From a virus (taxonomy: Duplodnaviria; Heunggongvirae; Uroviricota; Caudoviricetes), in the IMG/VR virus record IMGVR_UViG_3300037088_000797, positions 64,001 to 128,000 of that record: 64,000 nucleotides of DNA; one strand, given 5' to 3'. Positions 22,740 through 39,900 of this stretch are shown here, in pieces. Position 1 is the first letter of the stretch; every line of letters starts with the position of its first letter. The position numbers and the translations under genes were made by a program. The notes below the pieces were generated by a model. The model was not told the origin of the DNA and did no database searches. It worked only from the letters and a program-made list of their open reading frames with translations.

Positions 22740-23087
22740 TTATTCTTTTTTCTTTCTACTCGATTTTCTTGCAGTTTCTTCTGCATTAACCTCTTCACCT
22801 ACTGTCACTTCTGCAAGTACTGGAGCAGCAACTTTAGGTTTTCTTTCATTTCTTATGCTTTCAAGTTCGCTTTGACTAACTTCAACAACACTAACTAAAT
22901 TTTTTATTCTTAGTTTGTGTACTGAAAGTGGCAAATCAGCAACGGTAAGATAAAGACTTTTACCCGGATTTACGATAACTGTCTTTTTCATCATATTGTC
23001 AACATATTCAATGCTTATTGGAGAATTGAATTTAAAATCACGCTTTCCTGCGGTATCTGTTACGTTTGTAATTTTGTATGTGTTCAT
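22740..23087 (-). CDS. small hypothetical protein
   Basis: 115-aa ORF, 7 nt after the upstream stop, followed by a terminator. Confidence 0.6.
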   Translation of the reverse strand: MNTYKITNVTDTAGKRDFKFNSPISIEYVDNMMKKTVIVNPGKSLYLTVADLPLSVHKLRIKNLVSVVEVSQSELESIRNERKPKVAAPVLAEVTVGEEVNAEETARKSSRKKKE

Positions 23088-23094
23088 AGTCTTT

Positions 23095-23952
23095 TTATTT
23101 TAGTCCTTGTATTAATGTATCACCATATTTAATACCATCATATCCTAACTTCATTGCCTTTTCAGCAATGGCTTTGTTTTTAAGATTAATTGATGGCATA
23201 TCATATTGTTCACTTATTTTTTCAAAATTTATGTGCGGAAACCAAATTTTCGCCATTATATCGAGTGGTTCTTGACCGTCTTTATACGTAACACCCATCG
23301 AGTGCAGATCAAGGAGATTGTCGAATTCGATTTCATACTTATCAAAACCTTCAACGGGTTTTAACATGAAAAAATTTCCAACCACTGAATTTTCTTTTAT
23401 TGGTTCTTTTCTGTAACCAATGACAGTTTTATTATTTGTACCAGTATCACCAGAAGGCTTAAGTGCTAAATTATCTTCTTCAAGTGTGTTAAGAAATTGA
23501 TTTTCATCACCACCATAATAATTTATTGTATCCTGCATTTCAACTTCTTCCAAACCACGAGATTGCTCATATTCGTAAATGTCTTGTATTTTATTTAACA
23601 TTCTACAAGCATCTTTTTCATTCATTGCAAGTTTTACTGCTTTAAGTGGTACATTATCAATTAATGCTTTTAAATATCTGTGATGACCGTCACAAATATT
23701 CATTTTTTCTCCCGCAATCCAAATTGGATTAGTGTCATCAATATTAACTTTTTCTACTTCATCAGAAAATGTAACGCCTTGTGAAACATTTATATCGTCA
23801 TCTTCTTTAGGATTAAGCTCTATTAATTCATATTCAATACCTTCTTCATCAAGTTTCTGAAGTACAGTTTCATAAGGCATTGAAATTTGTGGAAGATATG
23901 ATGGCTTATATTTCATTGTTATCATAATACTGATTGATTTTTTAATTCGCAA
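23095..23952 (-). CDS. ParB/Sulfiredoxin-like domain protein plus a second unknown domain (start uncertain)
   Basis: NPIWIAGEKMNICDGHHRYLKALID..PLKAV ParB/Srx signature; C-terminal KLGYDGIKYGD. Confidence 0.6.
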   Translation of the reverse strand: MRIKKSISIMITMKYKPSYLPQISMPYETVLQKLDEEGIEYELIELNPKEDDDINVSQGVTFSDEVEKVNIDDTNPIWIAGEKMNICDGHHRYLKALIDNVPLKAVKLAMNEKDACRMLNKIQDIYEYEQSRGLEEVEMQDTINYYGGDENQFLNTLEEDNLALKPSGDTGTNNKTVIGYRKEPIKENSVVGNFFMLKPVEGFDKYEIEFDNLLDLHSMGVTYKDGQEPLDIMAKIWFPHINFEKISEQYDMPSINLKNKAIAEKAMKLGYDGIKYGDTLIQGLK

Positions 23953-24659
23953 AATAATGCTTCCTCAAAATATTTATCTACTGAATATGGTATTTTAATT
24001 AATTTAAATCCATTATTTACGGCATATTTTATTTTAATGAAATCATATTTTTTTCTTAATAATAATGAATCTTTGCCACCAAAAAAAGGTATTACTTTAT
24101 TGTGTTGTATACCATCATATTCAATAAGTATTTTATGGTCTGGTAAATAAAAATCATAAAATAATGGTTTTGAATCACCAACTAATTCTTTGAATGTTAT
24201 TTCTCGTTCAAAATTAATGTTATTATTCAATAAAAATTTGGCAACTTTTCTCTCACCTAATGATTCACGACATAAGCGACATCCATTTCCATTTAAATGA
24301 GAATGTGGTGTTTGTTGAAATTTACCATGTTTTTTGCAAATAACAATAATTTTATTTTCATATCCATCATATTTAACTAATGAATAATCATATGTGTTAC
24401 TATGTATTTTATTTGCTTTTTCAATAAATTCTTCATTTGTGAATCTATTTTCTTTCGAAGTTTTTTCGTATTGGCACATTTTACAACCATATCCTGTCAA
24501 ATGATCATTTGGTCTCTGTAAAAATTCACCATGTTTAGGACAAATAATTACCACTTTTGATTTACTATGAATGTAGTCAACATTAGAATAATCATATTTA
24601 TCACCATGTTTTTTTTGTGCATTGATGACAAAATTTTTTTTATTTGAACTTATTCCCAT
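23922..24659 (-). CDS. free-standing endonuclease: Zn-binding CPKHG repeats + Vsr/DUF559-like PD-(D/E)XK domain
   Basis: Two YDYS.V.Y......V.IIC.KHG.F.Q.P..HL.G.GC..C repeats; LFYDFYLPDHKILIEYDGIQH. Confidence 0.75.
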   Translation of the reverse strand: MGISSNKKNFVINAQKKHGDKYDYSNVDYIHSKSKVVIICPKHGEFLQRPNDHLTGYGCKMCQYEKTSKENRFTNEEFIEKANKIHSNTYDYSLVKYDGYENKIIVICKKHGKFQQTPHSHLNGNGCRLCRESLGERKVAKFLLNNNINFEREITFKELVGDSKPLFYDFYLPDHKILIEYDGIQHNKVIPFFGGKDSLLLRKKYDFIKIKYAVNNGFKLIKIPYSVDKYFEEALFCELKNQSVL

Positions 24660-24677
24660 TAATTGTGATAATTTTAC

Positions 24678-24686
24678 TATAAATAC
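24678..24686 (-). promoter_or_regulatory. putative late promoter motif GTATTTATA
   Basis: 19 nt upstream of ATG 24659. Confidence 0.55.
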
Positions 24687-24692
24687 AGTACT

Positions 24693-25886
24693 TTAAATTT
24701 TTTGAAATGGTATTGTTTTTCTACCTGCCATTTTATAAGCATAGTATCTATGATATCCATCCTTAAGTAAATTATTCTTATCTAAAACAACTGGTGGTAA
24801 TTCACTTCCTGTTTTTAATTTCTTGATCATTGTTTCCACTCTTAATTTATCTAAAGGTATTTTACCACTATTATGAACACTAATTATTTCGTTGGGATTA
24901 TTGGTGTCTACCAATATAAGTTCACCATTTATCTTAATGTTATTTATATCAATATTTTGTATTGAATTTTGAATTTCTTCATTAATGTTTTGTTTTATTT
25001 CTTTGTCGATAAAATCCCAATTATTCAATGGAATCCAACCGTATTTTGTATTAATTTCCAGTTCATCTACTGGTATTTCTCTGGTTGTTACCCATTCATA
25101 TGAATCATTTTTCTTATATTTGGGTGACAATTGAAAATCATCTGTCTTTTTTGTTCTAAGTACAATACCTCTGGCTGACCCACCTTTCATATCAGCATAA
25201 TATTTTGCGACATTAGGTTTACCAGTAAATGAAATATATGGTTCATTATTATTTGCTGCATTGATCTTCATACTACCAGTACGTTGTATGTAATACCCAG
25301 CACCATCATATGTGCCATGATAAACATAATTATCTTCAGCAATAAAGTTTTGAATTTCTTCAGCAACTATATTGGTGACTTCATCCAATGTCAACTCACC
25401 CTTATTTGCAATATAAATATTGAATTTAATACCTTCTGGTAATGAATTTCTTATGCCTTCGTATGTGGTAATATCAGTATCCCTGTCATCATAAACGTTA
25501 ATCTCTCTTAGGTCTGGTAATTTAGTTGCATAATCAAGAATTTTTTGACCCTTATTTCTTGCACCACGTTGCATATCAAGTTTATCAACTTTAATATGGT
25601 TAACATCCAGTACTGCTTGTACTAAGGGACGTAATTTTTCTTGTCGTGAGGTTAATACAATAGTATATGTGGCAGGTGTTGAAACATCTTTATTTAAAAT
25701 GCTTAATACCTTTGGAAATGGTTTAATGTCGAAAACATCTAAATCCAAACTTTCGGGTCTACCCCACCAGCCTTGATATTTAAATGGCACACCCTTCTTG
25801 TATGACCAGAAACGTTGTCCTGTTTCTTTCTCAGGAGTATTAATAAGTGTTGCATCAAAATCAAATGCGCATAATCTTGTTATCAT
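24693..25886 (-). CDS. three-domain protein: HAD phosphatase (Swiss-Army-Knife RNA-repair type) + ADP-ribosyltransferase-like + ParB/Srx
   Basis: CAFDFDATL..TP...GWWGRPESL...VLTSR...INVYDDR (HAD); YVYHGT...ISFT..PNVAKYYA...GIVL...EWV (ART fold); LPPVVLDKNNLLKDGYHRYYAY (ParB/Srx). Confidence 0.7.
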   Translation of the reverse strand: MITRLCAFDFDATLINTPEKETGQRFWSYKKGVPFKYQGWWGRPESLDLDVFDIKPFPKVLSILNKDVSTPATYTIVLTSRQEKLRPLVQAVLDVNHIKVDKLDMQRGARNKGQKILDYATKLPDLREINVYDDRDTDITTYEGIRNSLPEGIKFNIYIANKGELTLDEVTNIVAEEIQNFIAEDNYVYHGTYDGAGYYIQRTGSMKINAANNNEPYISFTGKPNVAKYYADMKGGSARGIVLRTKKTDDFQLSPKYKKNDSYEWVTTREIPVDELEINTKYGWIPLNNWDFIDKEIKQNINEEIQNSIQNIDINNIKINGELILVDTNNPNEIISVHNSGKIPLDKLRVETMIKKLKTGSELPPVVLDKNNLLKDGYHRYYAYKMAGRKTIPFQKI

Positions 25887-25909
25887 TATTCGTCTATTTT
25901 GTTTTTCTT

Positions 25910-26419
25910 CTAACTTTTTGTAAAATTATCATAATACATTACTTCATCTTCTTTTATCATTGTAACCCAACCATCTTTTTTATCAACTTTATGATGAATG
26001 TACTTAACTAAAACATCATGTCCCACAAGATGTGCTTTTTTTGGTGTATCGTCACCATCACCAGTAAAATGCGCTCTTCCGTATTCAAAATGTTGTTCAA
26101 GAAAACGATATATTTCAAGTGGAGTAATCCATATATATCTATATCCTGTGATAAACACCCAATATTTTGCTTTAGTCACTGATAATGCGGATAATTTACC
26201 GTTCATTTCAACCTCAATCACCAAATTACCAGTATGTTTTGATTTGTAATCATTTTTAACTTCAACACCAGCATTTATTTCTGGTATAAAAATATCCCAA
26301 TCACTATTTGCTTTACCTATATCATCAATATATGACTTAGGATACTTGTGCTGTAAAATTTTCAATATTTCTTCTTCTCCAATATTACCAGCTTTTTTTG
26401 ATTCTTTATATTCGCTCAT
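25910..26419 (-). CDS. PD-(D/E)XK restriction-endonuclease-like protein
   Basis: GNIGEEEI...DWDIFI...GVEVKND...TGNLVIE. Confidence 0.65.
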   Translation of the reverse strand: MSEYKESKKAGNIGEEEILKILQHKYPKSYIDDIGKANSDWDIFIPEINAGVEVKNDYKSKHTGNLVIEVEMNGKLSALSVTKAKYWVFITGYRYIWITPLEIYRFLEQHFEYGRAHFTGDGDDTPKKAHLVGHDVLVKYIHHKVDKKDGWVTMIKEDEVMYYDNFTKS

Positions 26420-26426
26420 ATTTCAG

Positions 26427-26810
26427 TTAATTATATTCTACTTCAGTTACTTTTCCTGTTAATGATAATGGTCTTCTAATTTTTTCCCAATTTTTCAAAT
26501 TATTTGACATCATTGGCTTACCACCATTTGCTCTATTTACTGCAAGTGTTACATGTGCTTTTGGATTAAGTGTTTTAAAGCCAGATACTCCAACTGCAAT
26601 CACTTTATCATCCATTGCAATGTCTTCAACTGCCAGTCTTACTGGTAATCCAAGATATTTTTGATAATCTGGGTCGATTTCACCTGTATTAATAGTCATG
26701 TGATGCGCAATAATCTCCCAGCCTTCAGGTATTACGTTTTTAAATCTGTTAATTAATCTTTTTCTTGATTGTTCATCAAGTACAACAGCACTATATGAAA
26801 TGTTGTCCAT
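26427..26810 (-). CDS. 2H phosphoesterase, fungal tRNA-ligase CPDase-like (2',3'-cyclic phosphodiesterase)
   Basis: YSAVVLD...AHHMTI and AHVTLAV (two HxT motifs), ending GGKP..SN.L. Confidence 0.75.
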   Translation of the reverse strand: MDNISYSAVVLDEQSRKRLINRFKNVIPEGWEIIAHHMTINTGEIDPDYQKYLGLPVRLAVEDIAMDDKVIAVGVSGFKTLNPKAHVTLAVNRANGGKPMMSNNLKNWEKIRRPLSLTGKVTEVEYN

Positions 26811-26812
26811 GT

Positions 26813-29800
26813 TTATTCGTTTAATAGTTCTCTGTCAGTTAATGCCCAGAGTAATTCTTTTTTAAGATGTTCATCGTGTGTAAGGTCTTCATAATTATTC
26901 TGAAAAAATTCAAGAACACTTGCAGTTGAAGGGTCTTTATAACCATCTTGATTCCATATATCGTATTTTTCAACAAAGAATGGTATTCCTACTTCTTGTC
27001 CGTTTATATTCCAGATATCTTTTTTTTCAGGTTCTAATGTATCATATGAAAATTCTTTTAACAAACCATCATCATTAAGATTTAATATCTCACCATCTTT
27101 ACCTCTGCGACCTTTCCACGTATAAACCAATTCATCACCCTTCAATATTCTTTCTTTTTCAAATGGTTTAATGTACTTTTTACCTTCACCTTTTTTAACG
27201 TATGCAATTGTAATGTGTGCGTGGTAGTCAGGAAACTTAGTGGTATTTGGCAGTTCTCTCATAATACCATTAACCTTTGCAAGTAAATCTGAATTAACGT
27301 CAAATTTAACCACATCAAAATCGGGGTTTTCAAACACTGAAATACCAGATATTTTAACTTCAATTGGTTTCAACGGCATCTTTGATTTGTATAATTCAAA
27401 TACCTGTTCTGGTGTAACTTCATCATGAAATCCATATAATATTGTAAGATGTGGTTCTTTTTCAACACCATAGTCATCGCCCTTTATGTAAAGATCGTCC
27501 AAATCAACAACTGATGTGATCTTGCTCCAAATAGGTACTTCGAGAAATAACATAAGACAACCATACTCAATTCTTTCGGATGTTTCTTCTTTAATTTCTT
27601 TTGCATTTGCAAATCCAACAGTATTTCTTGCATTTTGTAATGCATCATATTTTTCTATTGTCGTTAATCTTACGTGTGAACCATTAATTGGATGATTGTA
27701 ATCCACCCTGCCATTATCAATAAATTCTACAAGTTGTTCTTCAGTCATATTTGTTGTCCAAATATCGCCTCTAAATTTATTATCCAAGGGACGCATTTCA
27801 ATTAAATATGTATTTGTTTCTTTATCAAAAACAATATTATTCAATACAACCATCATCATACCGCTTGGACTACCAAAATATAATTTTCGATTACTATATT
27901 TTCTCCAACCTAAACCTTCAGCGTGTTCTTCTTTAATCATCGGCTTTTCTTGCTTTGCCAAAGATAGTAAATCTTCTTTATTATTCATAGCATTATTTGA
28001 ATAAACCTTTAATAACAATGATTTTTGCATATCACCAATTGCTTTGCCCTGTAAACCAAGTTGCATTAAGTCATTGCCATTTATTGCTAATTCATTGACA
28101 CTCTTTGGATATTTGCCTTGCAGTAGTTCTTGTGCTGCAGTTTTAATAACATTAGGTAATATCTGGCTCTGTAATGATGTAGGAGATATTACGTACATGT
28201 TATGAGCAACTGAACGTGCTTCAACTAAATTAGTTGCTTCTCTGCTTTCAAATGCTATTTGAAGTGCCTTAATTTCTCTATAAGCATTTTCATCACCCTT
28301 TAAATTAGTTTTATAAAACTCTGCTGGGTCGTTAACAAGATTTTTACTTAATAAATAAACAAATTCGCCTATTGTTCTTACTTTATCGAAAGGTTCTTTT
28401 GTGTTTCTGAAGTCATAATATAATCCTTTGCCGAATATTTCTTTAAGTAAACCAGTTTCGTCAAGTAATATTGCACCTGTCAAAATATTGCCCTTTTTGA
28501 CAATTTTATCAAATTCTGTCAAAATTCTTTCGGGAGCAATTTCTTTAACTCTTTCAGCATTTTCCTGAATCATTTTCATTGTTTCTGGTTCAATAGTAAA
28601 ACCGAAACGACTTGCAAACTGTACAGCACGCAACATTCTAAGTGGGTCATCACTGAATGCCTGTGGATTAACAACCTTGATGACCTTATTCTTTAAGTCT
28701 TCCTGACCACCGAAAGGGTCAACTATATTACCATCAATATCTTTTGCAATTGCATTAATCGTAAAGTCCCTACGTTCCAAATCCTTTTCTATTGGCAATG
28801 CATGATCAGACTTAACATCAAATCCCTGATGACCACCTTCACCTGTTGGTGTTTCAGTACGTGGGATTGCAATATCAATATCTTCAGTTGCTCCTTTTGG
28901 TTTGAATTTAAGCACACCGAATGATTTACCAACAGCATTCACAGCACCATACTTACCAAGAATCTGTTCGAGTTGTTCAAATGGTATGCCTGTAATAAGA
29001 ATATCCAAGTCTTTGGATTCTTTGCCAAGAATTTCATCCCTGACAGCACCGCCAACTGAATATATTTTACCACCTGCTTCTTCAACATCTTCTCTGAATG
29101 GAAGATAGTTTAATCCCATTATTTGCCCCTCATATATCATTTTGCGCATTCTTTTGTTTGAGTATAAAAAATTATCCAAATCTTCTTTATCGGTAGGTAA
29201 TTGAAAATTCTGATGTTTACTATGTTCTTCATCACCAATATCGGTATAAATATATGATTCTCCCCCTAATGAACTTGAATAAGCATCAAGCAATACTTCT
29301 TTCAGTCTTTCTTCAGTTGGTGCATGAATATCTAATATATTTCCAATCTCTCCCTTATTAAATATTATTCTTGTATAACCATCATTATATGCCCTGTTGT
29401 ATATTTCATTTTGACTTTTTATGTCTGGATATAATCGCACTAAATAAGCCAAATGTACATCAGATTCAATAAATTTATTGTCAGGTGTTATCCAACCAGT
29501 ATGATCATAATTAGGAACTCTGATATTCCCTTCTGTTAATACCTCATTTATAGATTCATTTGCTGGTTCATGTTTTTGTTTACTCTTTTCTGGTTTGAAA
29601 GTTTTTACAAATGTATCATAAATTTTCTCAGCAATAGCACGATTTGCTCCATTTGGTATGTTTTTTCTGAACATCATTTCAATTTTGTTCGCAATCTCGT
29701 GAGCGTCATCATATTCATAACCATAATGTCTTATAATAAAACTTTCTGTTCTTTCATGTAATAGTATTGCTTCAAAGTCTGCTGGTTTGATCATAAACAC

Positions 29801-32800
29801 ATCATCAATCCAATATTCATTTTCTCCAATATGACTTGCATATTTCTGTTCGATTTTTGGAAGATCAGCATCAACCCAATGGTTACCACCATCGACCCAT
29901 TCAATAAATCCACTATCACGAACCTGATCACCATTAACGGCAAACACACTATATGTGTGATCTCCATCCTGATAATTTCTTATAAATTTCTTATCAAGAT
30001 GATGTGTAGTAAGGTCTTGCTGAATATCTTTTTCAAATTCAGGAAAATTTTCTTCATTTAAGTCCCAGAAATCATATGCAACTTCTTCATCAAGATCATT
30101 AAAGTCATCTGGTGATTTATCAGGCATTATTGGCACTTTGCTACCATATTTATTACGAATGTGTTGTTCTATATCGCTTGGTTTATAATCTAATAATTTT
30201 CCGATCTCACGTGCTTCTTCTGGAGTTTTATCTTTAAGATAACCTTCATTGTTCTTTGCAAAATCATATAATAAATATGCTTTAACCTTATCAGTATATA
30301 TAATTGCCATCATTGTTAGACGTGAAGTCATTCTTGTGGGAATTACACCAATTTTTCTTTTTTCAAGTTTTTGAGCAATTTCTTTATTAATTTCAAGAAA
30401 AGCAACGCCTCTTTTTCCATTTAAAATAGACTTAATTGCAGCAATATCGCTACGCATTTCTTTTGCATTAACTTCTTCGTTAACTTCTTCTTTTAATGGC
30501 TTAATGTCCACAGCATTAATGTCACCCCAATTACATTGAGCACTTGTGTTACCCAAGCCACCTAATCTACATTTCTTTTTAATTTCAACAGTACTGCTAC
30601 CTTCCATAGAAGATAATTTTCTTTCTTCATTCAATTCTTCTGATGATATATCAACAGCATTGATTGTTGCCACTTCTTTATTAAAAAAGGCAACTATTTT
30701 ATGATAACCATCAATTAAAATCTTATCAGAAGTACTAATCACAAAATAATCATTTAAATGCTTTTCAATATTCTCTTCATAGTATTTTATTGTTTCTAAT
30801 TGTTCTTCTTTCGTATTATCAATACTATCTTCAATTTCGCCATTATTATAAAACAAATAAATGTCCTTAACGCTTAATTTTTTTAATTCAAAATATGTGT
30901 TATTATATTCATCCGTTGTAATAAAATTCCATAACATTTCATGTTTATCGGGCATTTCAGGATAAACCTCAGATAGTTTAATTTTATTTACATTTTGTAC
31001 TTCTTCAGACATCAAATATTCATCTTTAGTAGCATCGTCAACATGATTATATTCTAAATCTTCTTCAATATTTGTATTTGCGTTTATATCGTTCTGAATT
31101 GAAGGAGAATTATCAATATTATTATGTGCAGGAAAATTATCTTGACCCATTGCATTATCGGTTGAAAATTTTGCGCTACCATCTTCAGGAAGATAAATAA
31201 TATCTTGTGCCATCATTGTTGGTTCATGTGCTTTATAACCACCAACATCAAAAAATTTCAACACCCCGTTTTGATATCCCAAGTTACCTGCATTACCATA
31301 GTCATCTGACTTAATACCATATTTACGTAATTCTTCTTGTATGTTAATTAAATCAATTAAATAGTCATATGTTGATTCTCTGTCTTCAGCAGAAATATTT
31401 AATTCTGGTTTATCACTTATTAAGTGTTTTGCAACTTCACCTACTTCTGCAGATGATTTTTTACGCATCATTAACAAGATATCAATATAATTCAATCCTG
31501 CAGGTTCAATTGTGTCAATTGTTTTCATGTATATGAAAAATTCTGCAGTAGGTTTGTCCTTAACGTTTTCCTGAAGAATTGCAAAGAAAGCGAGTTGTTT
31601 TACAGTATCAATTATTTTATAAAATGAGAATATTTTAGCAATATACTTTGGCTGTTCATTTATTAATTTACCAGCAGCATCTGCTTCGCTCTTATCTGCA
31701 GTTATTTTCAATATTACATTATCGTTAATTGTGAATGCATGACCATTTGAACCACCATCCATGTATACTGGTTCTGCCCCAAGATTTATTTTTTTTGCAA
31801 AAGCACTTGCCAATTCAGTTGCATAGTTTTTATCTTCTAATGTAAACGGTTTAACTGTTTGTCTTGAAGGATTTGTTGCTTCATTAATTTCATATTCTTC
31901 TTTAAGAAGCGGGTCTCTGTCATAATATTTATTTTCAATAAGCCATTCTTGAAGCGTCAATAAATTATTATAAAATTTCTTTTTCTGTGGAACACGTTTC
32001 AATACTTCTTTAAGATTGTTTACCACATTATGAAATTCATCAAGAACATACGGTGCGCTCGGTAATTTCTTTGGATATTTATCTCTGGCAAGTACAAATG
32101 AAATAAAACCTTCATTAATGACACCACCACCATCACCAACACCATAAGGCATTTGCGCCCACATACCTCTACGAGTATCGATTGCATCTTGTGGTGGCAT
32201 ATCTGAAAGTATATCATCATTACCATCAGCACAATTAAACATTTCATACATCTGATATTGTTGCTTTCTTTTTGGACTATAATGAGTATTATAAACTTCA
32301 TCAGTTAATCCATAATCACTAAGAACAATTGTTGGTTGACCATCACGAAAAACCTCACCATAGGTACTTGCTCTACCCAAATCACCTGCAGATATCGAAT
32401 AATTTGACATTATGTCTTGTAAATCAGTGACAAATTCATTATCGTTTAATAATTTTTCAATATCTACATCCAAGCCAAATATATTTCCACCACCTTTAAT
32501 TCTATTTTCATGATTTCTAAGAAAATAAAACAATTCATTTAAACTTGGAATACCTGTTAATTGTTTAATTCTTGCTTCGCTTACTTTTTTTGCTTTCTCC
32601 GCAACAATCCAACTACCATTATTATCGGATTCTAAAACCTTTGTAACAATATAATGTGTGTCTGGATATCTACCAATATTTATTTCTGCGTCATTCTGAG
32701 CAACACCCTTGGCGTTCTTAGCTAATTTGAATACCTTTGTGCCATCAATATCGTAAACAATTCTACCACTACCAGCACCAAGTTTCAGAAGGTTTTGATC

Positions 32801-32878
32801 GGCATATATAATTTTCTGTCTAAAGGACTGTATTTCTTCAAATTGGTCTAAGAAATTTAAGAATTCATCGTAAGTCAT
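26813..32878 (-). CDS. 2021-aa polyvalent protein: kinase, kinase, ParB/Srx, zincin-like, CCA-adding nucleotidyltransferase, Acb1-like 2H phosphoesterase and several unknown modules
   Basis: Kinase 1 LGAGSGRIVY..KVFKLAK..DL..DYG; kinase 2 GGSNGHAF..LKIT..D.GNAGN..FFDVG; ParB LIDGYHK; LLHERTE; CCA GGAVRDEILG..KDLDI, DLERRDFTINA, DDPLRMLRA; 2H EPHLTILYG / YHAHITIAY. Confidence 0.85.
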   Translation of the reverse strand: MTYDEFLNFLDQFEEIQSFRQKIIYADQNLLKLGAGSGRIVYDIDGTKVFKLAKNAKGVAQNDAEINIGRYPDTHYIVTKVLESDNNGSWIVAEKAKKVSEARIKQLTGIPSLNELFYFLRNHENRIKGGGNIFGLDVDIEKLLNDNEFVTDLQDIMSNYSISAGDLGRASTYGEVFRDGQPTIVLSDYGLTDEVYNTHYSPKRKQQYQMYEMFNCADGNDDILSDMPPQDAIDTRRGMWAQMPYGVGDGGGVINEGFISFVLARDKYPKKLPSAPYVLDEFHNVVNNLKEVLKRVPQKKKFYNNLLTLQEWLIENKYYDRDPLLKEEYEINEATNPSRQTVKPFTLEDKNYATELASAFAKKINLGAEPVYMDGGSNGHAFTINDNVILKITADKSEADAAGKLINEQPKYIAKIFSFYKIIDTVKQLAFFAILQENVKDKPTAEFFIYMKTIDTIEPAGLNYIDILLMMRKKSSAEVGEVAKHLISDKPELNISAEDRESTYDYLIDLINIQEELRKYGIKSDDYGNAGNLGYQNGVLKFFDVGGYKAHEPTMMAQDIIYLPEDGSAKFSTDNAMGQDNFPAHNNIDNSPSIQNDINANTNIEEDLEYNHVDDATKDEYLMSEEVQNVNKIKLSEVYPEMPDKHEMLWNFITTDEYNNTYFELKKLSVKDIYLFYNNGEIEDSIDNTKEEQLETIKYYEENIEKHLNDYFVISTSDKILIDGYHKIVAFFNKEVATINAVDISSEELNEERKLSSMEGSSTVEIKKKCRLGGLGNTSAQCNWGDINAVDIKPLKEEVNEEVNAKEMRSDIAAIKSILNGKRGVAFLEINKEIAQKLEKRKIGVIPTRMTSRLTMMAIIYTDKVKAYLLYDFAKNNEGYLKDKTPEEAREIGKLLDYKPSDIEQHIRNKYGSKVPIMPDKSPDDFNDLDEEVAYDFWDLNEENFPEFEKDIQQDLTTHHLDKKFIRNYQDGDHTYSVFAVNGDQVRDSGFIEWVDGGNHWVDADLPKIEQKYASHIGENEYWIDDVFMIKPADFEAILLHERTESFIIRHYGYEYDDAHEIANKIEMMFRKNIPNGANRAIAEKIYDTFVKTFKPEKSKQKHEPANESINEVLTEGNIRVPNYDHTGWITPDNKFIESDVHLAYLVRLYPDIKSQNEIYNRAYNDGYTRIIFNKGEIGNILDIHAPTEERLKEVLLDAYSSSLGGESYIYTDIGDEEHSKHQNFQLPTDKEDLDNFLYSNKRMRKMIYEGQIMGLNYLPFREDVEEAGGKIYSVGGAVRDEILGKESKDLDILITGIPFEQLEQILGKYGAVNAVGKSFGVLKFKPKGATEDIDIAIPRTETPTGEGGHQGFDVKSDHALPIEKDLERRDFTINAIAKDIDGNIVDPFGGQEDLKNKVIKVVNPQAFSDDPLRMLRAVQFASRFGFTIEPETMKMIQENAERVKEIAPERILTEFDKIVKKGNILTGAILLDETGLLKEIFGKGLYYDFRNTKEPFDKVRTIGEFVYLLSKNLVNDPAEFYKTNLKGDENAYREIKALQIAFESREATNLVEARSVAHNMYVISPTSLQSQILPNVIKTAAQELLQGKYPKSVNELAINGNDLMQLGLQGKAIGDMQKSLLLKVYSNNAMNNKEDLLSLAKQEKPMIKEEHAEGLGWRKYSNRKLYFGSPSGMMMVVLNNIVFDKETNTYLIEMRPLDNKFRGDIWTTNMTEEQLVEFIDNGRVDYNHPINGSHVRLTTIEKYDALQNARNTVGFANAKEIKEETSERIEYGCLMLFLEVPIWSKITSVVDLDDLYIKGDDYGVEKEPHLTILYGFHDEVTPEQVFELYKSKMPLKPIEVKISGISVFENPDFDVVKFDVNSDLLAKVNGIMRELPNTTKFPDYHAHITIAYVKKGEGKKYIKPFEKERILKGDELVYTWKGRRGKDGEILNLNDDGLLKEFSYDTLEPEKKDIWNINGQEVGIPFFVEKYDIWNQDGYKDPSTASVLEFFQNNYEDLTHDEHLKKELLWALTDRELLNE

Positions 32879-32901
32879 GCTGTAACTATTTATAGTATGT
32901 T

Positions 32902-32910
32902 TATAAATAC
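32902..32910 (-). promoter_or_regulatory. putative late promoter motif GTATTTATA upstream of the polyprotein
   Basis: 24 nt upstream of ATG 32878, just downstream of a terminator. Confidence 0.6.
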
Positions 32911-32922
32911 AAAGTTAACACG

Positions 32923-32951
32923 AAAAAAAAGCGCAATTAGAGTTGCGCTTT
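32923..32951 (-). terminator. intrinsic terminator overlapping the stop codon of 32937..33623
   Basis: Stem aaagcgcaa/ttgcgcttt followed by U8 on the minus strand. Confidence 0.7.
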
Positions 32952-33623
32952 CTTTGCTTTATTTTTATCTGAAATTTCTTTGATTACTTCGAATATCACC
33001 CCTCTGATCATTTCCTTGTTTTCAGTAAGCACTTCTTTTATTCGTTCAGCAGCATACATTTCAAGTATTGTGCCTTTGATTGCTTCCTCTACGACAGGAC
33101 CGAAATTATCAATCAGGTAATTGTCAACTATTTTCTTCACGTTCTCAACCAAATAACCTTCATTAAGCTGTTGTGCAGGTACTCCAAGAGGCGCACCTTG
33201 ATTATTATATTGTTGTTTATTGCCACCACCAATATATGGTGCAATTGATTCAGCAAGTGTTTGTTTGTTTTTTGCCTGAAGATCAATAAACATTTGTTCT
33301 TCTCTTTCAGGTGACATGTCAACTTTAGTGTTTGTTGGCTGTATTGGCATACGTGTCGATTCTCTTTCAACTGGAGTTTCATTAACATTGTGACGTACTG
33401 TTTCTTTGTTTTTAACTGCAACTTGATTTTCAACTAATTTAATTAATTTGGTTGCCTCTGTTTGAAGACCAGTGTTATATGATTGCATTAATTCATATAA
33501 GAATTTATCTCTCGGAGCAACATTGTTAACAACATTTCCATTTACAACTGTTGATGTATTAGTTCTTTCGTTCTTTCGAGAAGCTATTTCGGTTCTAAGT
33601 TTATTTAAATCAGGTTTTGCCAT
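32937..33623 (-). CDS. hypothetical helical protein, possibly head/scaffold-associated
   Basis: Preceded by the late motif (33646-33654); contains LNEG and LVEN motifs and a Q/N/P-rich linker. Confidence 0.55.
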   Translation of the reverse strand: MAKPDLNKLRTEIASRKNERTNTSTVVNGNVVNNVAPRDKFLYELMQSYNTGLQTEATKLIKLVENQVAVKNKETVRHNVNETPVERESTRMPIQPTNTKVDMSPEREEQMFIDLQAKNKQTLAESIAPYIGGGNKQQYNNQGAPLGVPAQQLNEGYLVENVKKIVDNYLIDNFGPVVEEAIKGTILEMYAAERIKEVLTENKEMIRGVIFEVIKEISDKNKAKKAQL

Positions 33624-33655
33624 TTTATAAAATTTTATATTTTTTTATAAATACT

Positions 33656-34564
33656 CTAATCTTTGAAAAAAGTCTTTCTAATCATAGGAATATTTTCATT
33701 TTCTCTAAACATTGGTGGATTTTGTGGGGTTTGCTTCTCAGCAAGACCTTTTACCATCCTGTCTTTTTGATTTTTAGCGAACTGATCTTGTGCTGCTTTA
33801 TTCACTGGTGTCTTCATGACAAGCCTGTTGTATAAGTTAATGAGATCATCCACATAAGCATTTTGTGGAAAATTGGCTTTTGTTCTCACATCCTGCAAAT
33901 TATAATTATTTCTGTCATCAATTGCAACAAAGAAATCTGTGATAGGTTTTTTGTAAACTTTTTTTGCAATGTCAACCAGTCCAATAACGTCTTCTTTAGT
34001 AATCTTACGATTGTTCTTATTTGCGTTTTTATATTTTTCCCATCTTGGTGTTTTGGGTTTTGCTGTTGGTAATATGTTTTTCATTGGTTGTTTTCCACCA
34101 GTAACTGATGCAACAATACCGCCTGTCATATCAGCATCGTTTTGTTTATATCCGGGCGGAACTTGAACATTTCCCTTCTCGTCTTCAAATTTTTTATGCA
34201 TTGGTACAATTGAAGTTATTTTGTCAACAAGAAACAATCTCCAAGCAGGTTTTGTTACTCCATCATTATCAAGATCATATTCATGACCTTTTCTTTTTAC
34301 TCTTGGAGCATCAGGTCTTAGGCTATCACTTCTCCCTTTATCTTGCCATGCTCTAAGTGCTAAATTGCCAGTGGTATTTACTCCCAGCACAAAAGGTCTT
34401 ATTGTTCGATAACCAGTTTCTTTTGTTGTATCACCCTTATAGTATATATACAAGAATTCATGGTTGTTGATAGCATCAACAATTGTCTTATCACTAACGC
34501 CCTCTGTTAAGAGTTGACGGAAATGCCTAATGTTTTCGAACAATATTTTAGACTCACTAATCAT
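33656..34564 (-). CDS. WYL-domain protein with a long C-terminal extension
   Basis: IVDAINNHEFLYIYY.G.....GYRTIRPFVLG......ALRAWQ...WRLFLVDKITSI. Confidence 0.75.
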   Translation of the reverse strand: MISESKILFENIRHFRQLLTEGVSDKTIVDAINNHEFLYIYYKGDTTKETGYRTIRPFVLGVNTTGNLALRAWQDKGRSDSLRPDAPRVKRKGHEYDLDNDGVTKPAWRLFLVDKITSIVPMHKKFEDEKGNVQVPPGYKQNDADMTGGIVASVTGGKQPMKNILPTAKPKTPRWEKYKNANKNNRKITKEDVIGLVDIAKKVYKKPITDFFVAIDDRNNYNLQDVRTKANFPQNAYVDDLINLYNRLVMKTPVNKAAQDQFAKNQKDRMVKGLAEKQTPQNPPMFRENENIPMIRKTFFKD

Positions 34565-34803
34565 TATGCTGTACCTGCATCATATTGTTTGCCTTCTTGA
34601 TATTTGTTCTTAGCAATTTCACAGGTCCTTACTTTAATGTCTGTTTTGCCACCAATACTACCATTCAATTCACCTTTGCCTTCTTCATCACCTGTTGATA
34701 ATGCATCTGGATGACCAGTGTTATATTGATCATTATCATCATAGTCATTTTTAGCAATGCTGCATTTTCTGTATGGTAGGCTAACGCCTTCTAATCTACT
34801 CAT
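34564..34803 (-). CDS. small protein with an internal duplication
   Basis: RKCSIAKNDY..NDQY.TG and RTCEIAKNKY..GKQY.AG; late motif at 34836-34844. Confidence 0.6.
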   Translation of the reverse strand: MSRLEGVSLPYRKCSIAKNDYDDNDQYNTGHPDALSTGDEEGKGELNGSIGGKTDIKVRTCEIAKNKYQEGKQYDAGTA

Positions 34804-34847
34804 TTTTTTATATTTTAATTAATTCAATTATTTACTATAAATACAAT

Positions 34848-35618
34848 TTATTCGTCTTTTTTGAATGCCATTGTAATATATTCTATCAAATGTGGTACAA
34901 TATCTAAGAATTTCATTTCTTCAACATCATACCAACCATAGTTTGTGTTTTCTTCATTTAACTTAATATCTGTTGGTTCGCCATCATAACGACAAGCAAA
35001 TATGTGTTCAATACTATCTGGATTCTTTTGAATACTGAAGGACTTAATAAACTTACTGATATCCAAACCAGTTTCTTCTTTAATCTCTCTTTTAACTGCT
35101 TGCTCTGGAGTTTCATCTTTTTCAATCCCACCGCCAACTAATGCCCATTTACTTGGTTGCCATATCTTGGGGTCTGAACTTCTTTTAAGTAACAGTATTT
35201 TATTATCACCGTCTACAATTACTGCACAAGCATTTTTTTTCAGGTCTTTCTTTTCTTCATTCAGTCTGGGTGTCTGGTATGGTTTTAATTCTGAATTAGG
35301 ATTTGTTGCCATATCCTGTTTAACATTCTTTGTCATTTCAACACCTGCCCTGTCACTTGCCAATGTTGCTTCAATAAATTGTCTCATAGGATTACCGCCA
35401 GCAAGAGCATACTGCATCTTATCACCTGTTTGTGAATTAAAATAATCAAAGAAATTCTTCAGTCTTTTCATTGCCTGATAGGTTATAGCACCATTTTTAA
35501 GAAGATAATTAGCACGTTTAATGCCTTCTCCATCTGAACTCGATGCTTTTGCTATCTCAATACCTTTAAGTATGTCTGGAGGTATCCTATATTGTTTATT
35601 GTACAATTCTTGGTTCAT
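34848..35618 (-). CDS. two-domain protein: helical N-domain + Nudix hydrolase
   Basis: Complete Nudix box GGIEKDETPEQAVKREIKEETGL; N-domain G.KRA..L......T....KR...FF....YAL.GG resembles a module of phage head-associated proteins. Confidence 0.8.
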   Translation of the reverse strand: MNQELYNKQYRIPPDILKGIEIAKASSSDGEGIKRANYLLKNGAITYQAMKRLKNFFDYFNSQTGDKMQYALAGGNPMRQFIEATLASDRAGVEMTKNVKQDMATNPNSELKPYQTPRLNEEKKDLKKNACAVIVDGDNKILLLKRSSDPKIWQPSKWALVGGGIEKDETPEQAVKREIKEETGLDISKFIKSFSIQKNPDSIEHIFACRYDGEPTDIKLNEENTNYGWYDVEEMKFLDIVPHLIEYITMAFKKDE

Positions 35619-36315
35619 ATGTTTCTAAAATTTTCTCAATTTGATTTATTTGATCAAATCTAATTCTAAGTAAATTATAATTATTTGATTTGGCATATTC
35701 ATTTTTTATATTGTCATTAATTTTCTGTAAATTAAATTTATTTAAACCACCGAAATGATTATTCGGTGAAAAATGTTGTGCTCCATCAAATTCAATTAAC
35801 ACGTTGTTTTCAGGAAGAAAATAATCAAACGCAAGTTTATTAACGTTTTTACAATCATCAAACTTTTTTTCTCTTTCAAATTTTATTGAATTTTTCAATA
35901 AAAAATCGGCAATTCTTTTTTCGCCAATTGATTCATTACAACATGGACAACCACTTCCTTTTAAATGTGTGTTTGGTTTTTGAAAAAATGTTCCGTGTAC
36001 AAGACAAATAATATTAATATATTTATGCGCATCTATGTAATTAACCTCTGAATAATCATATTTTTCTCCATGAATTTCTTTTGCTTTAGAAATAAAATAT
36101 TCGGTATTTTTTCTTAATTTCATATCACCACATATTGGACAACCATGACCAGCTAAATGTGTATTTACTCGTTGTATAAATTCTCCGTGTTTAGGACATG
36201 TAATTACTATATTATCATGTGTTAATATAAAATCAACCAGATCATATAAATAATAATAATTATGAACAATATTTGCTTTTTTAATAAACATATCAATTGT
36301 TAATCTCTTACTCAT
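35596..36315 (-). CDS. free-standing endonuclease (CPKHG repeats + Vsr/DUF559-like domain), paralogue of 23922..24659
   Basis: ITCPKHGEFIQR..THLAGHGCPIC; LAFDYFLPENNVLIEFDGAQH. Confidence 0.75.
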   Translation of the reverse strand: MSKRLTIDMFIKKANIVHNYYYLYDLVDFILTHDNIVITCPKHGEFIQRVNTHLAGHGCPICGDMKLRKNTEYFISKAKEIHGEKYDYSEVNYIDAHKYINIICLVHGTFFQKPNTHLKGSGCPCCNESIGEKRIADFLLKNSIKFEREKKFDDCKNVNKLAFDYFLPENNVLIEFDGAQHFSPNNHFGGLNKFNLQKINDNIKNEYAKSNNYNLLRIRFDQINQIEKILETYEPRIVQ

Positions 36316-36956
36316 TACTTTCTTTCCAATAAATTTGCAAGTTTATCTTTGTCCTGTTGATCTAATTTACTTATAAGACCAGCTATTTTTTCAAGTTTTT
36401 TATCTCTAACGTCTTTATCGTCAGCTTTTTTTGACAATTCATCTTCAACTTTGTCAACAAGTTTATCTTCAGCTACGTTATCTTCAACAATTTCATTTTC
36501 ATTTAATGTTTCATCAATAGGTTCTTTAAATGCTTTTTCGAAATGTGGTTCAACGGCTTTAATAATTTTTCTTGCCCATGCAATATCTTCTTTCTCACAC
36601 TGTTCTGAATGTGTTTCACCTGCTGCATGTTTTCTGTAGTCTGGTTTTAAAAGATTAGGATTCTTATAATAATACTGTAAAGTATCTATACGTTTATCGT
36701 GCATGAGTTGTGCTAAGTCTTTCAATAATTCTTTCTGGCTTATATCTTCTTTACCTTCAAAGAATGGAAGTAATGTAAAGCCAAAACGACCTAACATATC
36801 GTATCTGAATGGTTGTTGAGCTTTTCCAACGTTCATATCGGTAGTGCCATTTGCTTGAGTATCTGCGTTAGCATCATTAGCTGGTACATCGTTCTTGCCG
36901 ATTAGTTCACCGTTAGAATCAATGATCTCAAATAATTGTATCTTTTTTATTTTCAT
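36315..36956 (-). CDS. hypothetical late protein, possibly head-associated
   Basis: Late motif at 36972-36980; LFE, LNE and IVED acidic motifs; helical C-terminus. Confidence 0.55.
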   Translation of the reverse strand: MKIKKIQLFEIIDSNGELIGKNDVPANDANADTQANGTTDMNVGKAQQPFRYDMLGRFGFTLLPFFEGKEDISQKELLKDLAQLMHDKRIDTLQYYYKNPNLLKPDYRKHAAGETHSEQCEKEDIAWARKIIKAVEPHFEKAFKEPIDETLNENEIVEDNVAEDKLVDKVEDELSKKADDKDVRDKKLEKIAGLISKLDQQDKDKLANLLERK

Positions 36957-36999: not shown

Positions 37000-39900
37000 C
37001 TATTCATCGTCCTCAATTTCATCATCAAATGATTCTGCATCATCATCTTCTTCAATGCCCTCCATTTGACCTATATAGAAGTCAAGCATTTCAGATGCAG
37101 TATCCTCTTCTCTGAAAAGCGTATCCATTGTCATATCCTCTGGAATATTAAAACGTTTTTTAAATTTATTAAAATATTTTTCACGTTTTATTCTGATAAG
37201 TTCAAGTTCTTTTTCTTTCTCTGTCTTAGTTGCCAACGTTATTTCGAGATTTTTAATTCTTTCTTGTTCTTCAGCTTTTTTCTTATCCAGTTCAAGTTCA
37301 ATTTCACATTTAGATATTTCAACAATTGGTCTGATGATTTCAATGAATGTGCCATTATGTTTACCAACACTATAATCACCACCGTTTTTAATTAAAACCA
37401 TATCTCCCTCACCGTAATTATCATTAATTGATTTAATTTTTGGTTTGTTAATTGCGGTCATCTTTTCATTAAGGAAATTCAGTGCATGATCATAAATTTC
37501 ATAATAAACTTTAGCATCATCATACATTTTAAAGCCATTCCATATTTTTCTTGGGTCATAACCATGCTTATTCCAGAATTCAACTTCTTTTTCTTCCAAA
37601 TGCATTGATTCGTCAAAGTCATTAAGATCAAAATTTTTCAAGTCTAATTGATATGAGGCAAAATTTTCACCACCACATTTCAAATCAACTTCTTTTGTTT
37701 TTTTATCTTTGACAATTTTAGCCAGCATGTTTTTTGATACTTCAGGGTCAAATCCAACAAGTAATGCTTTAACACGCTTATTAAAAGCATTTAAATACTT
37801 AGCCACATTATATTGACCCATCATGTTTGGATTGTCCTGAAGATCATCGGCAGTAATTAAAGCTGAACAATATCTCTCTTCGCCAGTTATCTTGTCTTTA
37901 ATAATACTTGAATTGCCTTCAGAAATCTTAGTGCCAGTATTAACATAATAAACAACACTGTCAAGTTCAGGTTCAGGTGGCATGTAATCGGAAACTAACT
38001 TTATTTTTTCATCAATTTTATATTTTTCGGCATCTTTGGTGAGAATAAGTTTATCTTTATTCTTATCAAATATTTGTTCAGCAATTTTATTTCTCTTGTC
38101 GATCAGAAGCTCCATGTGTGCCTGTTTACCTTTCTCCCTGCCATTTTTATCTTTACCTCTTTTCTTATATGCGGTTATTGTATTTTTTATTTTACTTTTA
38201 CTTGCAATTTTCTTTAATGGAATCCTGCAGAGATATAAATCTTTTGCATAGTCATTATAATAGTTAACAAACTCAGTACCTTTACCGTGAAGAATCATGT
38301 CAAGTCCTTTGTCAATAAAGTCTTCAATGTATCCGGGCATGATTTTCGATTTAATTGTATTACCAGTATGCTTAATTTTCTCTTTCATTTCGCCACTCTT
38401 CTTATCTTTGGCAAGTGATAAGGTTGCATAATTAATTCTTGAAAGATTTAAACATGAAATTGATTCACCATCATTATCAACCGACATGTAAGGTGGAGTC
38501 ATTTCTTCTTTATTGTACTTAAGTATAAGGGCATCAATACCTTTCTTACCACCATATTGCCACATTTCTTCAATTGGTGCTTCTGGTTGATCAGTATAAT
38601 ATTCAGTTTCAGTAAATCTTATTGTTGTTGTTTCAGGATACTGGAAGTTAATACCATCGGTTACAGCAAGTAATGCGATACATTTAAATTTACTGAACCA
38701 CATAATTGCATGTCTTAAATGCAATCTACCAGTACAAGTTATACGTGCTGCACAAACATTATCTGACCAGTTAAATGAAATATCAGAACCAAGAGCACCG
38801 TACAAAGAGTTATTTAAAATCTTGATAGGTAATTGTTTGATTTTAAACATTGCAACGTCAGCAGGAGTTAATAATTTATTAACATACTTCAAGTGCATTT
38901 CTGGGTCGATCTGTCTGAATAAAATAACTTCTTCATCATTTAATTCATTACCATTTCCTAATTTTTTATAGATGTTACGAGTTGTAGTAAGATACAACAA
39001 AATTTTCTTCATAACATCGGTGATGTCAAATATTGGAAATACACCTTCAGTTAGTTGTATGGAAGGATAAAGACCTGCATAGTCAATCTTAATAATTCTC
39101 TTACTAAAACCTGATTTATAGCATCTTGCAAGACCACCAGCAAATTTTTTCGGTAATTTTACATCAGGTATTGGGATTGCAAGGTCGTTTTCGTAACTCC
39201 ATGCCGTCATAAGTAAGTTCCAAATACCTGCCGTACCCATCGTACAAATACGTTGATAGGTCGTTGGTACTATTTTAGCGAGCATAAATGATGACTGATT
39301 ATAAAGTTCATCAACCTGTGCTGTTTCCCAAAGGTCATCAAGAAGATATTGTTTCACAAGTTTTTTACCGCCAATAAAACCTGTCATTTGTTTTGGAATT
39401 GCATCTGATCTGAACCACTGTGCAAATTGCGGACAATCTCTAAGATAACTATTTTTTAATGACTGATAACGTTCAGGTGCTAATGTTGTTTTATTTGCCT
39501 GTAATTTATATAAATTTTTTGCCGTCAGTTGATATTCGTCTGGTATTTCAACGTATTCATTCTTTTCGTTAATAGCAAAGACCTTATTTTCAGAATAATA
39601 ACGACCAATGTTATTATCTTCCCCCGGGATGTATGTTCGGTTTGGCTTTGCAAACTTCTCAAACTTTGCTATATACTTTAACTTATTCTCTTTTATTTCA
39701 CTATTAACAGCAGCAGTTCTTCTCACTGCGTGAAGAATATCAATAACCGACATACCCCACATATCAGTCCAAGTATATTTATCTGCAGTATTACCATATT
39801 TAACTGAAGTATTGGGTCTTCTTCTCATTTGAACACCTTCTTTAAGACTCGTTGGAATCTTACTCATGTCCATCTTAAGAAGTTTTGCTCTGCCCAGAAT

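Follow-up and report, generated by a model that had tools for sequence, protein, structure and literature searches.

Module joints of a polyvalent protein from a T4-like jumbo phage match the specificity of the T4 head protease

RESULTS

A modular polyprotein and its island

This study concerns a 2021-amino-acid (aa) protein of about 12 modules, hereafter the polyprotein, encoded by a tailed phage whose 178.5-kb contig (IMG/VR record IMGVR_UViG_3300037088_000797) belongs to a jumbo-phage genome and has an estimated completeness of 54%. The window, that is, the whole stretch of DNA that we analyzed, comprises bases 64001-128000 (64,000 nucleotides) of this contig of about 31% G+C, and its minus strand holds nearly all of its genes. 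The polyprotein gene is part of an island (22740-36956) with a family-B-type DNA polymerase gene (37000-40686) on one side and glycosyltransferase and baseplate genes on the other. Our analysis indicates that the placement of a tripeptide ending in glutamate at the joints between modules—the motif cut by gp21, the head protease of phage T4—is very probably a selected feature of this protein family.

The features of the locus are collected in Table 1. The most clearly recognizable module of the polyprotein is module 9, which has the PolyA_pol head (82.3 bits in Pfam), the RNA-binding domains (56.2 bits) and the full-length fold of a class II CCA-adding enzyme, with a sequence match to PDB entry 6ibp (5e-31) and a Foldseek match (7e-18) across about 380-400 columns; it is also the only part of the polyprotein that was matched in other phages of the phage collection. 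Module 11 was assigned by 2_5_RNA_ligase2 (28.3 bits) and Acb1 (24.2 bits). In the N-terminal part, module 2 resembled APH(2'') and protein kinases weakly by Foldseek (E 3e-3) and is missing in three relatives, where residues 325-557 are deleted. AlphaFold2 runs on two halves of the polyprotein, with 7-8 aligned sequences only, yielded poor models (mean predicted local distance difference test [pLDDT] of 50 and 55), and Foldseek returned only weak kinase-like matches for the model of the N-terminal half. A short module at residues 752-798 of the polyprotein (P0001) is shared by 107 of 119 relatives. It has conserved cysteines (KKCRLGGLGNTS.xCN.GD) and no Pfam match, and it may bind metal.

Relatives that share the N-terminal module extend this repertoire. 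Our scans detected ART-PolyVal (46.5 bits against a cut-off of 31.2) and GNAT domains in them, ParBc is found among their precomputed Pfam domains, and CPD modules occur as well. Among three relatives (P0071, P0067, and P0101) there are an NleE-like cysteine methyltransferase module (29 bits) and ART-PolyVal modules, and the payload of the family would thus include host-protein modification as well as RNA repair. Pfam detected no peptidase family in the query, whether taken whole or module by module, or in four scanned relatives, and none among the precomputed Pfam domains of 120 listed relatives. Module 7 was considered as an embedded metallopeptidase and rejected, as it has no Pfam match, its conserved motif is HERTE and not HEXXH, and its Atlas lead to Peptidase_M78 reached only 0.78. 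Since no peptidase module is recognizable, any processing of the polyprotein would need a separate, trans-acting enzyme.

Placement of the motif at module joints

An earlier note, made from the sequence alone, had proposed that nearly every module boundary of the polyprotein carries a T4 prohead-protease-like [ILV]xE site. All the sites that it listed are present in the open reading frame, including the terminal LLNE, except that LMSEE reads M-S-E and fits [ILVM]xE, not [ILV]xE. The specificity that it gave for gp21 agrees with the published I/LxE (PMC12991175), which is identical to the joint motif. In raw numbers the motif is ordinary, with 48 [ILV]xE sites against 39.9 expected by composition (P=0.08); the longer [ILV]xE[EG], a motif defined post hoc, occurs 12 times against 6.2 expected (P=0.017). 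With one [ILV]xE every 42 residues, a site close to each boundary comes cheap, and we therefore defined module boundaries blind to the motif, as the ends of BLAST segments against seven related IMG/VR loci whose orthologues (44-84% identity) gain, lose or replace modules. These ends cluster at query residues 324, 559, 625, 751, about 800, about 943, 1110-1123, 1239-1260, 1644-1662, 1758, and 1934-1956, which mostly matches the module map drawn earlier. Under circular shifts of the query, 3.9 of the 13 boundary clusters are expected to have [LI]xE within 5 residues, and 9 do (P=0.007); when residues are shuffled within the boundary windows, 5.2 of 11 windows are expected to contain the motif, and 10 do (P=0.003). 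In the AlphaFold2 models the joint sites form low-confidence coil beside confident domains, although the quality of these models makes them only weakly informative on linker exposure.

The same placement is seen across the family. In 12 orthologous proteins, 55 of 66 boundary windows contain [LI]xE (27.3 ± 3.6 expected), whereas motifs in another register or with another final residue are at or below expectation: 13 against 27 for [LI]E., 16 against 18 for [ILV]xD, and 15 against 21 for [ILV]xK. The joint logo of these orthologues has L (34), I (20), M (5), or V (3) at P3, a polar and variable P2 (K, N, D, S), an invariant Glu at P1, and E, D, G, or A at P1'; [SAG]xE shows no enrichment at joints. 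A search with the N-terminal module returned 141 proteins of 1111-2903 aa (49-84% identity), 120 of which were retrieved for joint analysis. In these 120 members, 956 of 1270 boundary peaks have [ILVM]xE no more than 6 residues away (379 ± 16 expected) and 704 have [LI]xE nearby (263 expected), with [ILV]xD and [ILV]xK depleted; the kinship of the members tells against taking the large z-scores at face value, as they overstate the independent evidence, and the number of distinct joint types is the fairer measure. Collapsing the joints to 138 distinct pairs of upstream and downstream modules, each with at least two members, leaves the motif in most members for 111 of them, compared to 27% when the boundary is shifted by 25-60 residues.

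We ran the same pipeline on 120 homologues of a 1489-aa, FN3-containing fibre-like protein from the same phages, and [LI]xE was found near 13 of 312 peaks (23 expected). The joint rule is thus specific to the polyprotein family and is not a general module-joint habit of these AT-rich genomes. The enrichment test suggested in the earlier note, run against composition, shifted positions and this control family, finds the motif enriched at the polyprotein joints and not in the control family.

Two origins of the motif other than selection on the protein were rejected. Fusion scars left by ordinary gene ends are disfavored, as the C- and N-termini of genes elsewhere in both genomes checked have the motif in 12-15% of cases against 9-12% in protein interiors, which is no enrichment, and as the joint codons differ. 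A recombination signal at the DNA level is disfavored by the differing codons at 16 sites, with AAAGAAGAA alone recurring, four times.

Gain, loss and separation of modules

Modules gained or replaced in relatives, among them GNAT, ParB-like and C-terminal insertions, provide joints outside the data of the earlier note, and here the motif is found on both flanks. Two relatives (L009 and L011) have a GNAT insertion with IDE on one flank and MNE or VNE on the other; a ParB-like insertion in L008 is flanked by LNE/LDE and LTE, and replaced modules in L009 and L014 by LSE, VKE, or MLE and by INE, LDE, or LNE. In proteins that lack a module, its two flanking sites are adjacent, as in PLKE-E-VNE-E. 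The query itself stops exactly at the Glu of ..LLNE*, as L013 does at ..ILDE*, and four relatives (L008, L010, L011, and L014) continue with extra modules after this terminal Glu. Immediately behind the terminal LL[DG]E, L010 and L011 have a module homologous to the query's next gene, which encodes the 127-aa protein: the stand-alone protein begins MDNISYSAVVLD, and the fused forms read LLDE|DDMRRVLYSAVVLD and LLGE|EEVKKISYSGVVLD. Given this match, cutting at the motif would yield products nearly identical to those of separate genes. A stand-alone CCA-adding enzyme likewise begins about 7 residues from the IYE|G position.

In four relatives the polyprotein gene is interrupted by a gene for a Vsr/DUF559-like endonuclease of about 290 aa (L014:12637-13491, L013:2370-3251, L012:12357-13331, and L010:2282-3160). 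The insertion lies at the joint that precedes the CCA-adding module, replaces module 8 and splits the gene into two open reading frames. A group I intron was considered for these split genes and dismissed, with no match in Rfam and the inserted frame being the endonuclease gene.

The N termini of the family are also patterned. Among the relatives, 105 of 119 have MTY or something close to it (MKY, MTF, MSY) as their first residues, in most cases with [DAE]EF next, and in 79 of these 105 the first motif ends at residue 12-13, with the consensus MTY[DAE]EF..L[PG]E| (for example, MTYDEFKQNFLPE|). On sequence grounds this peptide resembles the T4 capsid-targeting sequence, MKTYQEFIAE| (PMC8442874), a resemblance that we do not take as homology.

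Head genes of a complete relative

The search for a gp21-like protease proposed in the earlier note gave two answers: none was found on the contig of the window, and one was found in a complete relative. Scans of the contig flanks against PHROG did not find head genes, and the contig stops before the region that corresponds to the head module of this relative (G001; 362,763 bp, 100% complete), which has the same gene order and a polyprotein 84% identical to that of the query. The head genes of G001 follow the T4 order of terminase, gp20-like portal (208.8 bits), small core-like proteins, a 233-aa Peptidase_S77 protein (67.9 bits), a 543-aa scaffold-like protein and a gp23-like capsid protein (250.4 bits). 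The protease is 32% identical to Tequatrovirus gp21, with H85 and S140 invariant; mutation of the equivalent residues was used to inactivate T4 gp21 (PMC12991175). Candidate sites in the head proteins are placed as in T4: the scaffold-like protein has 33 [ILV]xE sites, the capsid protein has 6 in its first 64 residues, and the protease has LIE near its N terminus and LKE near its C terminus. The nearest capsid protein is that of Microcystis phage Mel-JY01 (33% identical), and cultured relatives with virion proteomics were not found in the phage collection.

In the middle of the G001 head module, between the protease and portal genes and on the opposite strand, lies a gene whose 1798-aa product has a GH25 lysozyme domain at its C terminus (L035:540-5936; G001 175540-180936, +). 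The gene has the same upstream motif as described below and may encode another virion-borne protein.

An upstream motif shared with head genes

The window holds 16 copies of the sequence GTATTTATA, where 2.6 are expected, and 15 of these lie on the coding strand. It usually lies 12-35 nucleotides ahead of a start codon, both in the window (4554-59302) and genome-wide in G001, which implies very short leaders. Within the window, copies stand ahead of the polyprotein gene, of four further island units and of several large structural genes. In G001, copies are found before the genes for portal, protease, scaffold and polyprotein and not before those for polymerase, helicase or primase. With the motif common to head genes, co-expression of the polyprotein with them is a reasonable inference. 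The earlier proposal that most island units start at a late motif stands insofar as GTATTTATA precedes five of them. The orientation does not fit: on the transcribed strand, GTATTTATA corresponds to the T4 late box in reverse complement and is therefore not a T4-type late promoter as such.

Neighboring genes of the island

The smaller multidomain proteins of the island (397, 256, 302, 228, and 213 aa) follow, as judged from their alignments, the same joint rule. In four of them, L/I-x-E marks, in all 5-6 orthologues, the point where a conserved domain meets a variable linker or neighboring domain, and in the fifth, the 302-aa protein, it closes a conserved N-terminal peptide, also in orthologues of 31-35% identity. 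The sites that the earlier note had read in neighboring genes are indeed present and conserved in 5-6 orthologues each (the L[NTS]E before Nudix, LL[TN]E|[GA], LNE|[GA], and two joints of the 397-aa protein). The peptide ending in LL[TN]E|[GA] is the best-conserved part of the 302-aa protein, whose first ~35 residues are about 70% identical in orthologues only 31-35% identical overall.

Two peptides that the earlier note had interpreted further fared less well. QNFIAE, likened there to a capsid-targeting peptide, is rejected as such: it is internal to the 397-aa protein, and the orthologues with the next module read QNF[VI]PD, without IAE; it falls within the helix that naturally forms the C terminus of the HAD protein, stand-alone relatives of which end ..EEIQKFI*. 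The fourfold recurrence of EE[IV]Q[NS] holds to the extent that there are 3-4 hits, all in the island; these are accounted for by the starts of paralogous ParB-like modules and by the C-terminal HAD helix, and we do not regard the string as a general targeting motif. The HAD domain of the 397-aa protein scores 24.0 bits for HAD_SAK_1, just under the Pfam cut-off of 25.6. Residues 187-300 of this protein give Atlas leads to the ART-fold families Arr, PARP, and Tpt1/KptA RNA 2'-phosphotransferase (TM 0.63), and a Tpt1-like role in RNA repair and protein ADP-ribosylation are equally plausible for this module.

Other island genes encode proteins of 285, 169, and 115 aa. Two genes for HNH homing endonucleases (phrog_559, E 1e-55 to 1e-60) are located at 23922-24659 and 35596-36315, both on the minus strand; the first separates a GTATTTATA motif from the gene for the 285-aa protein, which the motif directly precedes in G001.

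Table 1. Features of the island, with positions in the window
Feature	Position	Strand	Remarks
Polyprotein, 2021 aa, about 12 modules	26813..32878	-	modular open reading frame; polyvalent protein by module content
Joint sites (residue of first motif letter)			325, 331, 563, 625 (MSE), 749, 795, 799, 929, 940, 1110, 1114, 1248, 1648, 1762, 1940, 2019 (C terminus)
Module 1, residues 1-324	31907..32878	-	kinase-like; phrog_4301; N-terminal in 119/119 relatives
Module 2, residues 334-557	31208..31879	-	second kinase/aminoglycoside-phosphotransferase-like domain; pLDDT 75-89
Module 4, residues 628-751	30626..30997	-	ParB-like via DGYHK motif; flanked by MSE| and LNE|; in 19/119 relatives
Module 7, residues 943-1116	29531..30052	-	conserved HERTE motif; in 30/119 relatives
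Module 9, residues 1251-1650	27929..29128	-	full-length class II CCA-adding enzyme; IYE|G before it
Module 11, residues 1765-1942	27053..27586	-	2H phosphoesterase (LigT/Acb1-like); IKE|E before, LKE|F after
127-aa protein	26427..26810	-	CPD-like; own gene in query
397-aa protein	24693..25886	-	HAD, ART/Tpt1-like fold, ParB-like; joints I-x-E (conserved) and IAE (not conserved), and INE
256-aa protein	34848..35618	-	N-terminal domain, L[NTS]E at residues 120-122 (invariant in 6 orthologues), Nudix
302-aa protein	33656..34564	-	21-residue N-terminal peptide ending LL[TN]E|[GA]; peptide invariant even at 31-35% orthologue identity
228-aa protein	32937..33623	-	N-terminal domain, V/I-x-E, hypervariable linker, LNE|[GA], conserved C-terminal domain
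213-aa protein	36315..36956	-	PIDE| then LNE; 65-residue insertion exactly between both sites in 2 relatives
GTATTTATA, promoter-like motif	32902..32910	-	23 nucleotides upstream of the polyprotein start codon
GTATTTATA, further copies	24678, 33646, 34836, 36972

DISCUSSION

In this study, we analyzed how a large phage protein is put together at its joints. Our data suggest a polyvalent effector protein of T4-like jumbo phages in which a constant N-terminal kinase-like part is followed by swappable enzyme modules, with joints that keep a hydrophobic residue (Leu or Ile, less often Met or Val), any residue and Glu. We propose that the polyprotein would be made late, alongside the head proteins, and incorporated into the prohead core, where a gp21-type head protease would cut after the Glu of each joint, and that the freed enzymes would then travel with the DNA into the next host. 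The parts of this proposal differ in strength. Cleavage by a gp21-type protease is probable given the match between joint motif and known specificity, packaging followed by injection is a possibility to which we lean slightly less than to its opposite, and the complete sequence of packaging, cutting and injection strikes us as close to balanced. Still more tentative is the most explicit version, in which the head-maturation protease would serve as the trans-acting protease of the polyprotein, the N-terminal anchor would load a late product, the joint code would permit cassettes to be gained, lost or split off, and the virion would inject at least 10 free enzymes for RNA repair and host modification.

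Several observations weigh against this proposal. Peptidase_S77 was not found on the 178.5-kb contig of the window, which is 54% complete, such that the link to a protease rests on the relative. About 32 more [ILV]xE sites lie inside domains of the polyprotein, and many of them are conserved. The N terminus of the query, MTYDEFLNFLDQ, starts with MTYDEF and then reads LDQ, without Glu at the position where most of its relatives have one, and a common targeting peptide was not found among the island proteins. Modules are also encoded by separate genes, as seen for the 127-aa protein and for the C-terminal half in four relatives. These separate pieces would lack the polyprotein N terminus, so that linkage is not required for their function and packaging perhaps is not either; in the split genes in particular, the C-terminal half can work unattached to the N-terminal anchor. 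Finally, multidomain RNA-repair enzymes function uncut in other systems.

This last point leads to the view that the polyprotein is an uncut, cytoplasmic multidomain enzyme of the "Swiss-army-knife" type, whose joints follow a linker or cassette-boundary convention that aids folding or swapping and are not protease sites. Fused RNA-repair enzymes are common, the neighboring HAD domain comes near the HAD_SAK_1 threshold, the modules work as separate genes too, and the DNA string common to some joints could aid recombination. Yet a generic linker rule would be expected in the fibre-like family of the same phages as well, and it is not seen there; the motif is specific in register and equals a known protease specificity; the joint codons differ, which leaves no conserved recombination signal in the DNA; and ordinary gene ends are not enriched in the motif. 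We regard an uncut enzyme as unlikely. Alternatively, the joints could be cut and the products left unpackaged, with the head protease or another Glu-specific protease acting late in the cytoplasm and the enzymes serving the current infection. When expressed by itself, T4 gp21 cuts a host protein of the cytosol at an LPE loop (PMC12991175), which speaks for this option, as do the modules on separate genes without any targeting peptide and the degenerate N-terminal site of the query. Against it, T4 gp21 is confined to the prohead core and quickly inactivates itself, and the host-modifying modules (ART-PolyVal, NleE-like, and GNAT) would be most useful early, yet the gene bears the motif of head genes. 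Late synthesis of such modules fits virion delivery, and we consider cutting in the cytoplasm improbable. That the joint motif is a mere product of a composition rich in E, K, L, and I draws on the modest raw count in the query; as an account of motif placement it is very improbable, since it fails against the shuffles of local composition, the circular shifts and the register controls, as well as against the 138 joint types and the control family.

Should the joints be cut inside the head, as we propose, the capsid would deliver a whole kit of separate enzymes from one gene, and not one or two internal proteins, and delivery would hang on a code of three residues through which modules could be added and removed in the course of evolution. 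This would give a testable answer to the question of how polyvalent proteins without a peptidase of their own, as predicted in 2017, are released, and it would make cargo and mature ends predictable from sequence in uncultured T4-like jumbo phages. Repair of tRNA ends and modification of host proteins would then be counter-defense functions of the first minute of infection. The joint code could also serve to load foreign multienzyme cargo into T4-type capsids.

Judged by the modules that the query and its relatives contain, the family belongs to the polyvalent proteins that Iyer, Burroughs, Anand, de Souza, and Aravind described in 2017 in J Bacteriol (PMC5512222). Polyvalent proteins join 2 to 15 biochemically disparate domains in one polypeptide of a phage or conjugative element, and the polyprotein has about 12 modules. 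Their domains include kinases, Pol-beta nucleotidyltransferases, 2H, ParB-like, GNAT, and ART-PolyVal; of the hallmark domains, Pol-beta nucleotidyltransferase and 2H are found in the query and ART-PolyVal, GNAT, and ParBc in relatives. They share a late-gene or virion gene context and rapid shuffling of modules (PMC5512222); in our case, the island adjoins baseplate genes and the upstream motif is common to head genes. The 2017 paper anticipated packaging and injection, and it likened these proteins to viral polyproteins (PMC5512222). The difference lies in the release route, for which it proposes embedded peptidases, mostly zincin-like and rarely a C-terminal assemblin-like domain (PMC5512222). 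An embedded zincin-like metallopeptidase, the domain found most often in the class, was not found in our family; the peptidase is common and not obligatory in the class, with about 36% of members having it (PMC5512222). Instead of a recognizable peptidase, the polyprotein family has stereotyped L/I-x-E joints that match the specificity of the phage's separate head protease, and a joint code of this type was not found in the passages of the 2017 paper considered here (PMC5512222).

The closest parallel for the proposed processing is the internal cargo of T4. As in the case of internal proteins IPI-III and Alt, there is a T4-type head module with a protease of the gp21 family (in the complete relative) and an I/L-x-E logic, and most family members have a 12-13-residue N-terminal peptide, MTYxEF..LPE, like MKTYQEFIAE; Alt, moreover, is an injected host-modifying enzyme that is cut at both ends. 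T4 cargo proteins differ in being single-domain proteins in which one or two cuts remove short propeptides, whereas here at least 10 internal cuts would free enzymes. The T4 internal proteins also have no sequence homology to the polyprotein, whose N-terminal site is degenerate in the query. In phages phiKZ, 201phi2-1, and SPN3US, diverged homologues of gp21 act on many proteins that are internal to the head or ejected, cutting them after the Glu of a tripeptide motif and often at several positions in one protein (PMC5694885, PMC9026906). This group differs by a small P3 residue (S/A/G-x-E or A-x-E) and by processing that mainly strips propeptides. The polyproteins made by eukaryotic RNA viruses are similar in that one product is split into enzymes at short conserved junction motifs, and different in that they use their own internal protease, are cut in the cytoplasm and not in a capsid, and consist of unrelated domains. 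Both the polyvalent class and the processing of T4 cargo by the head protease are thus known; what is new is their combination, through a joint code, in a polyprotein without a recognizable peptidase.

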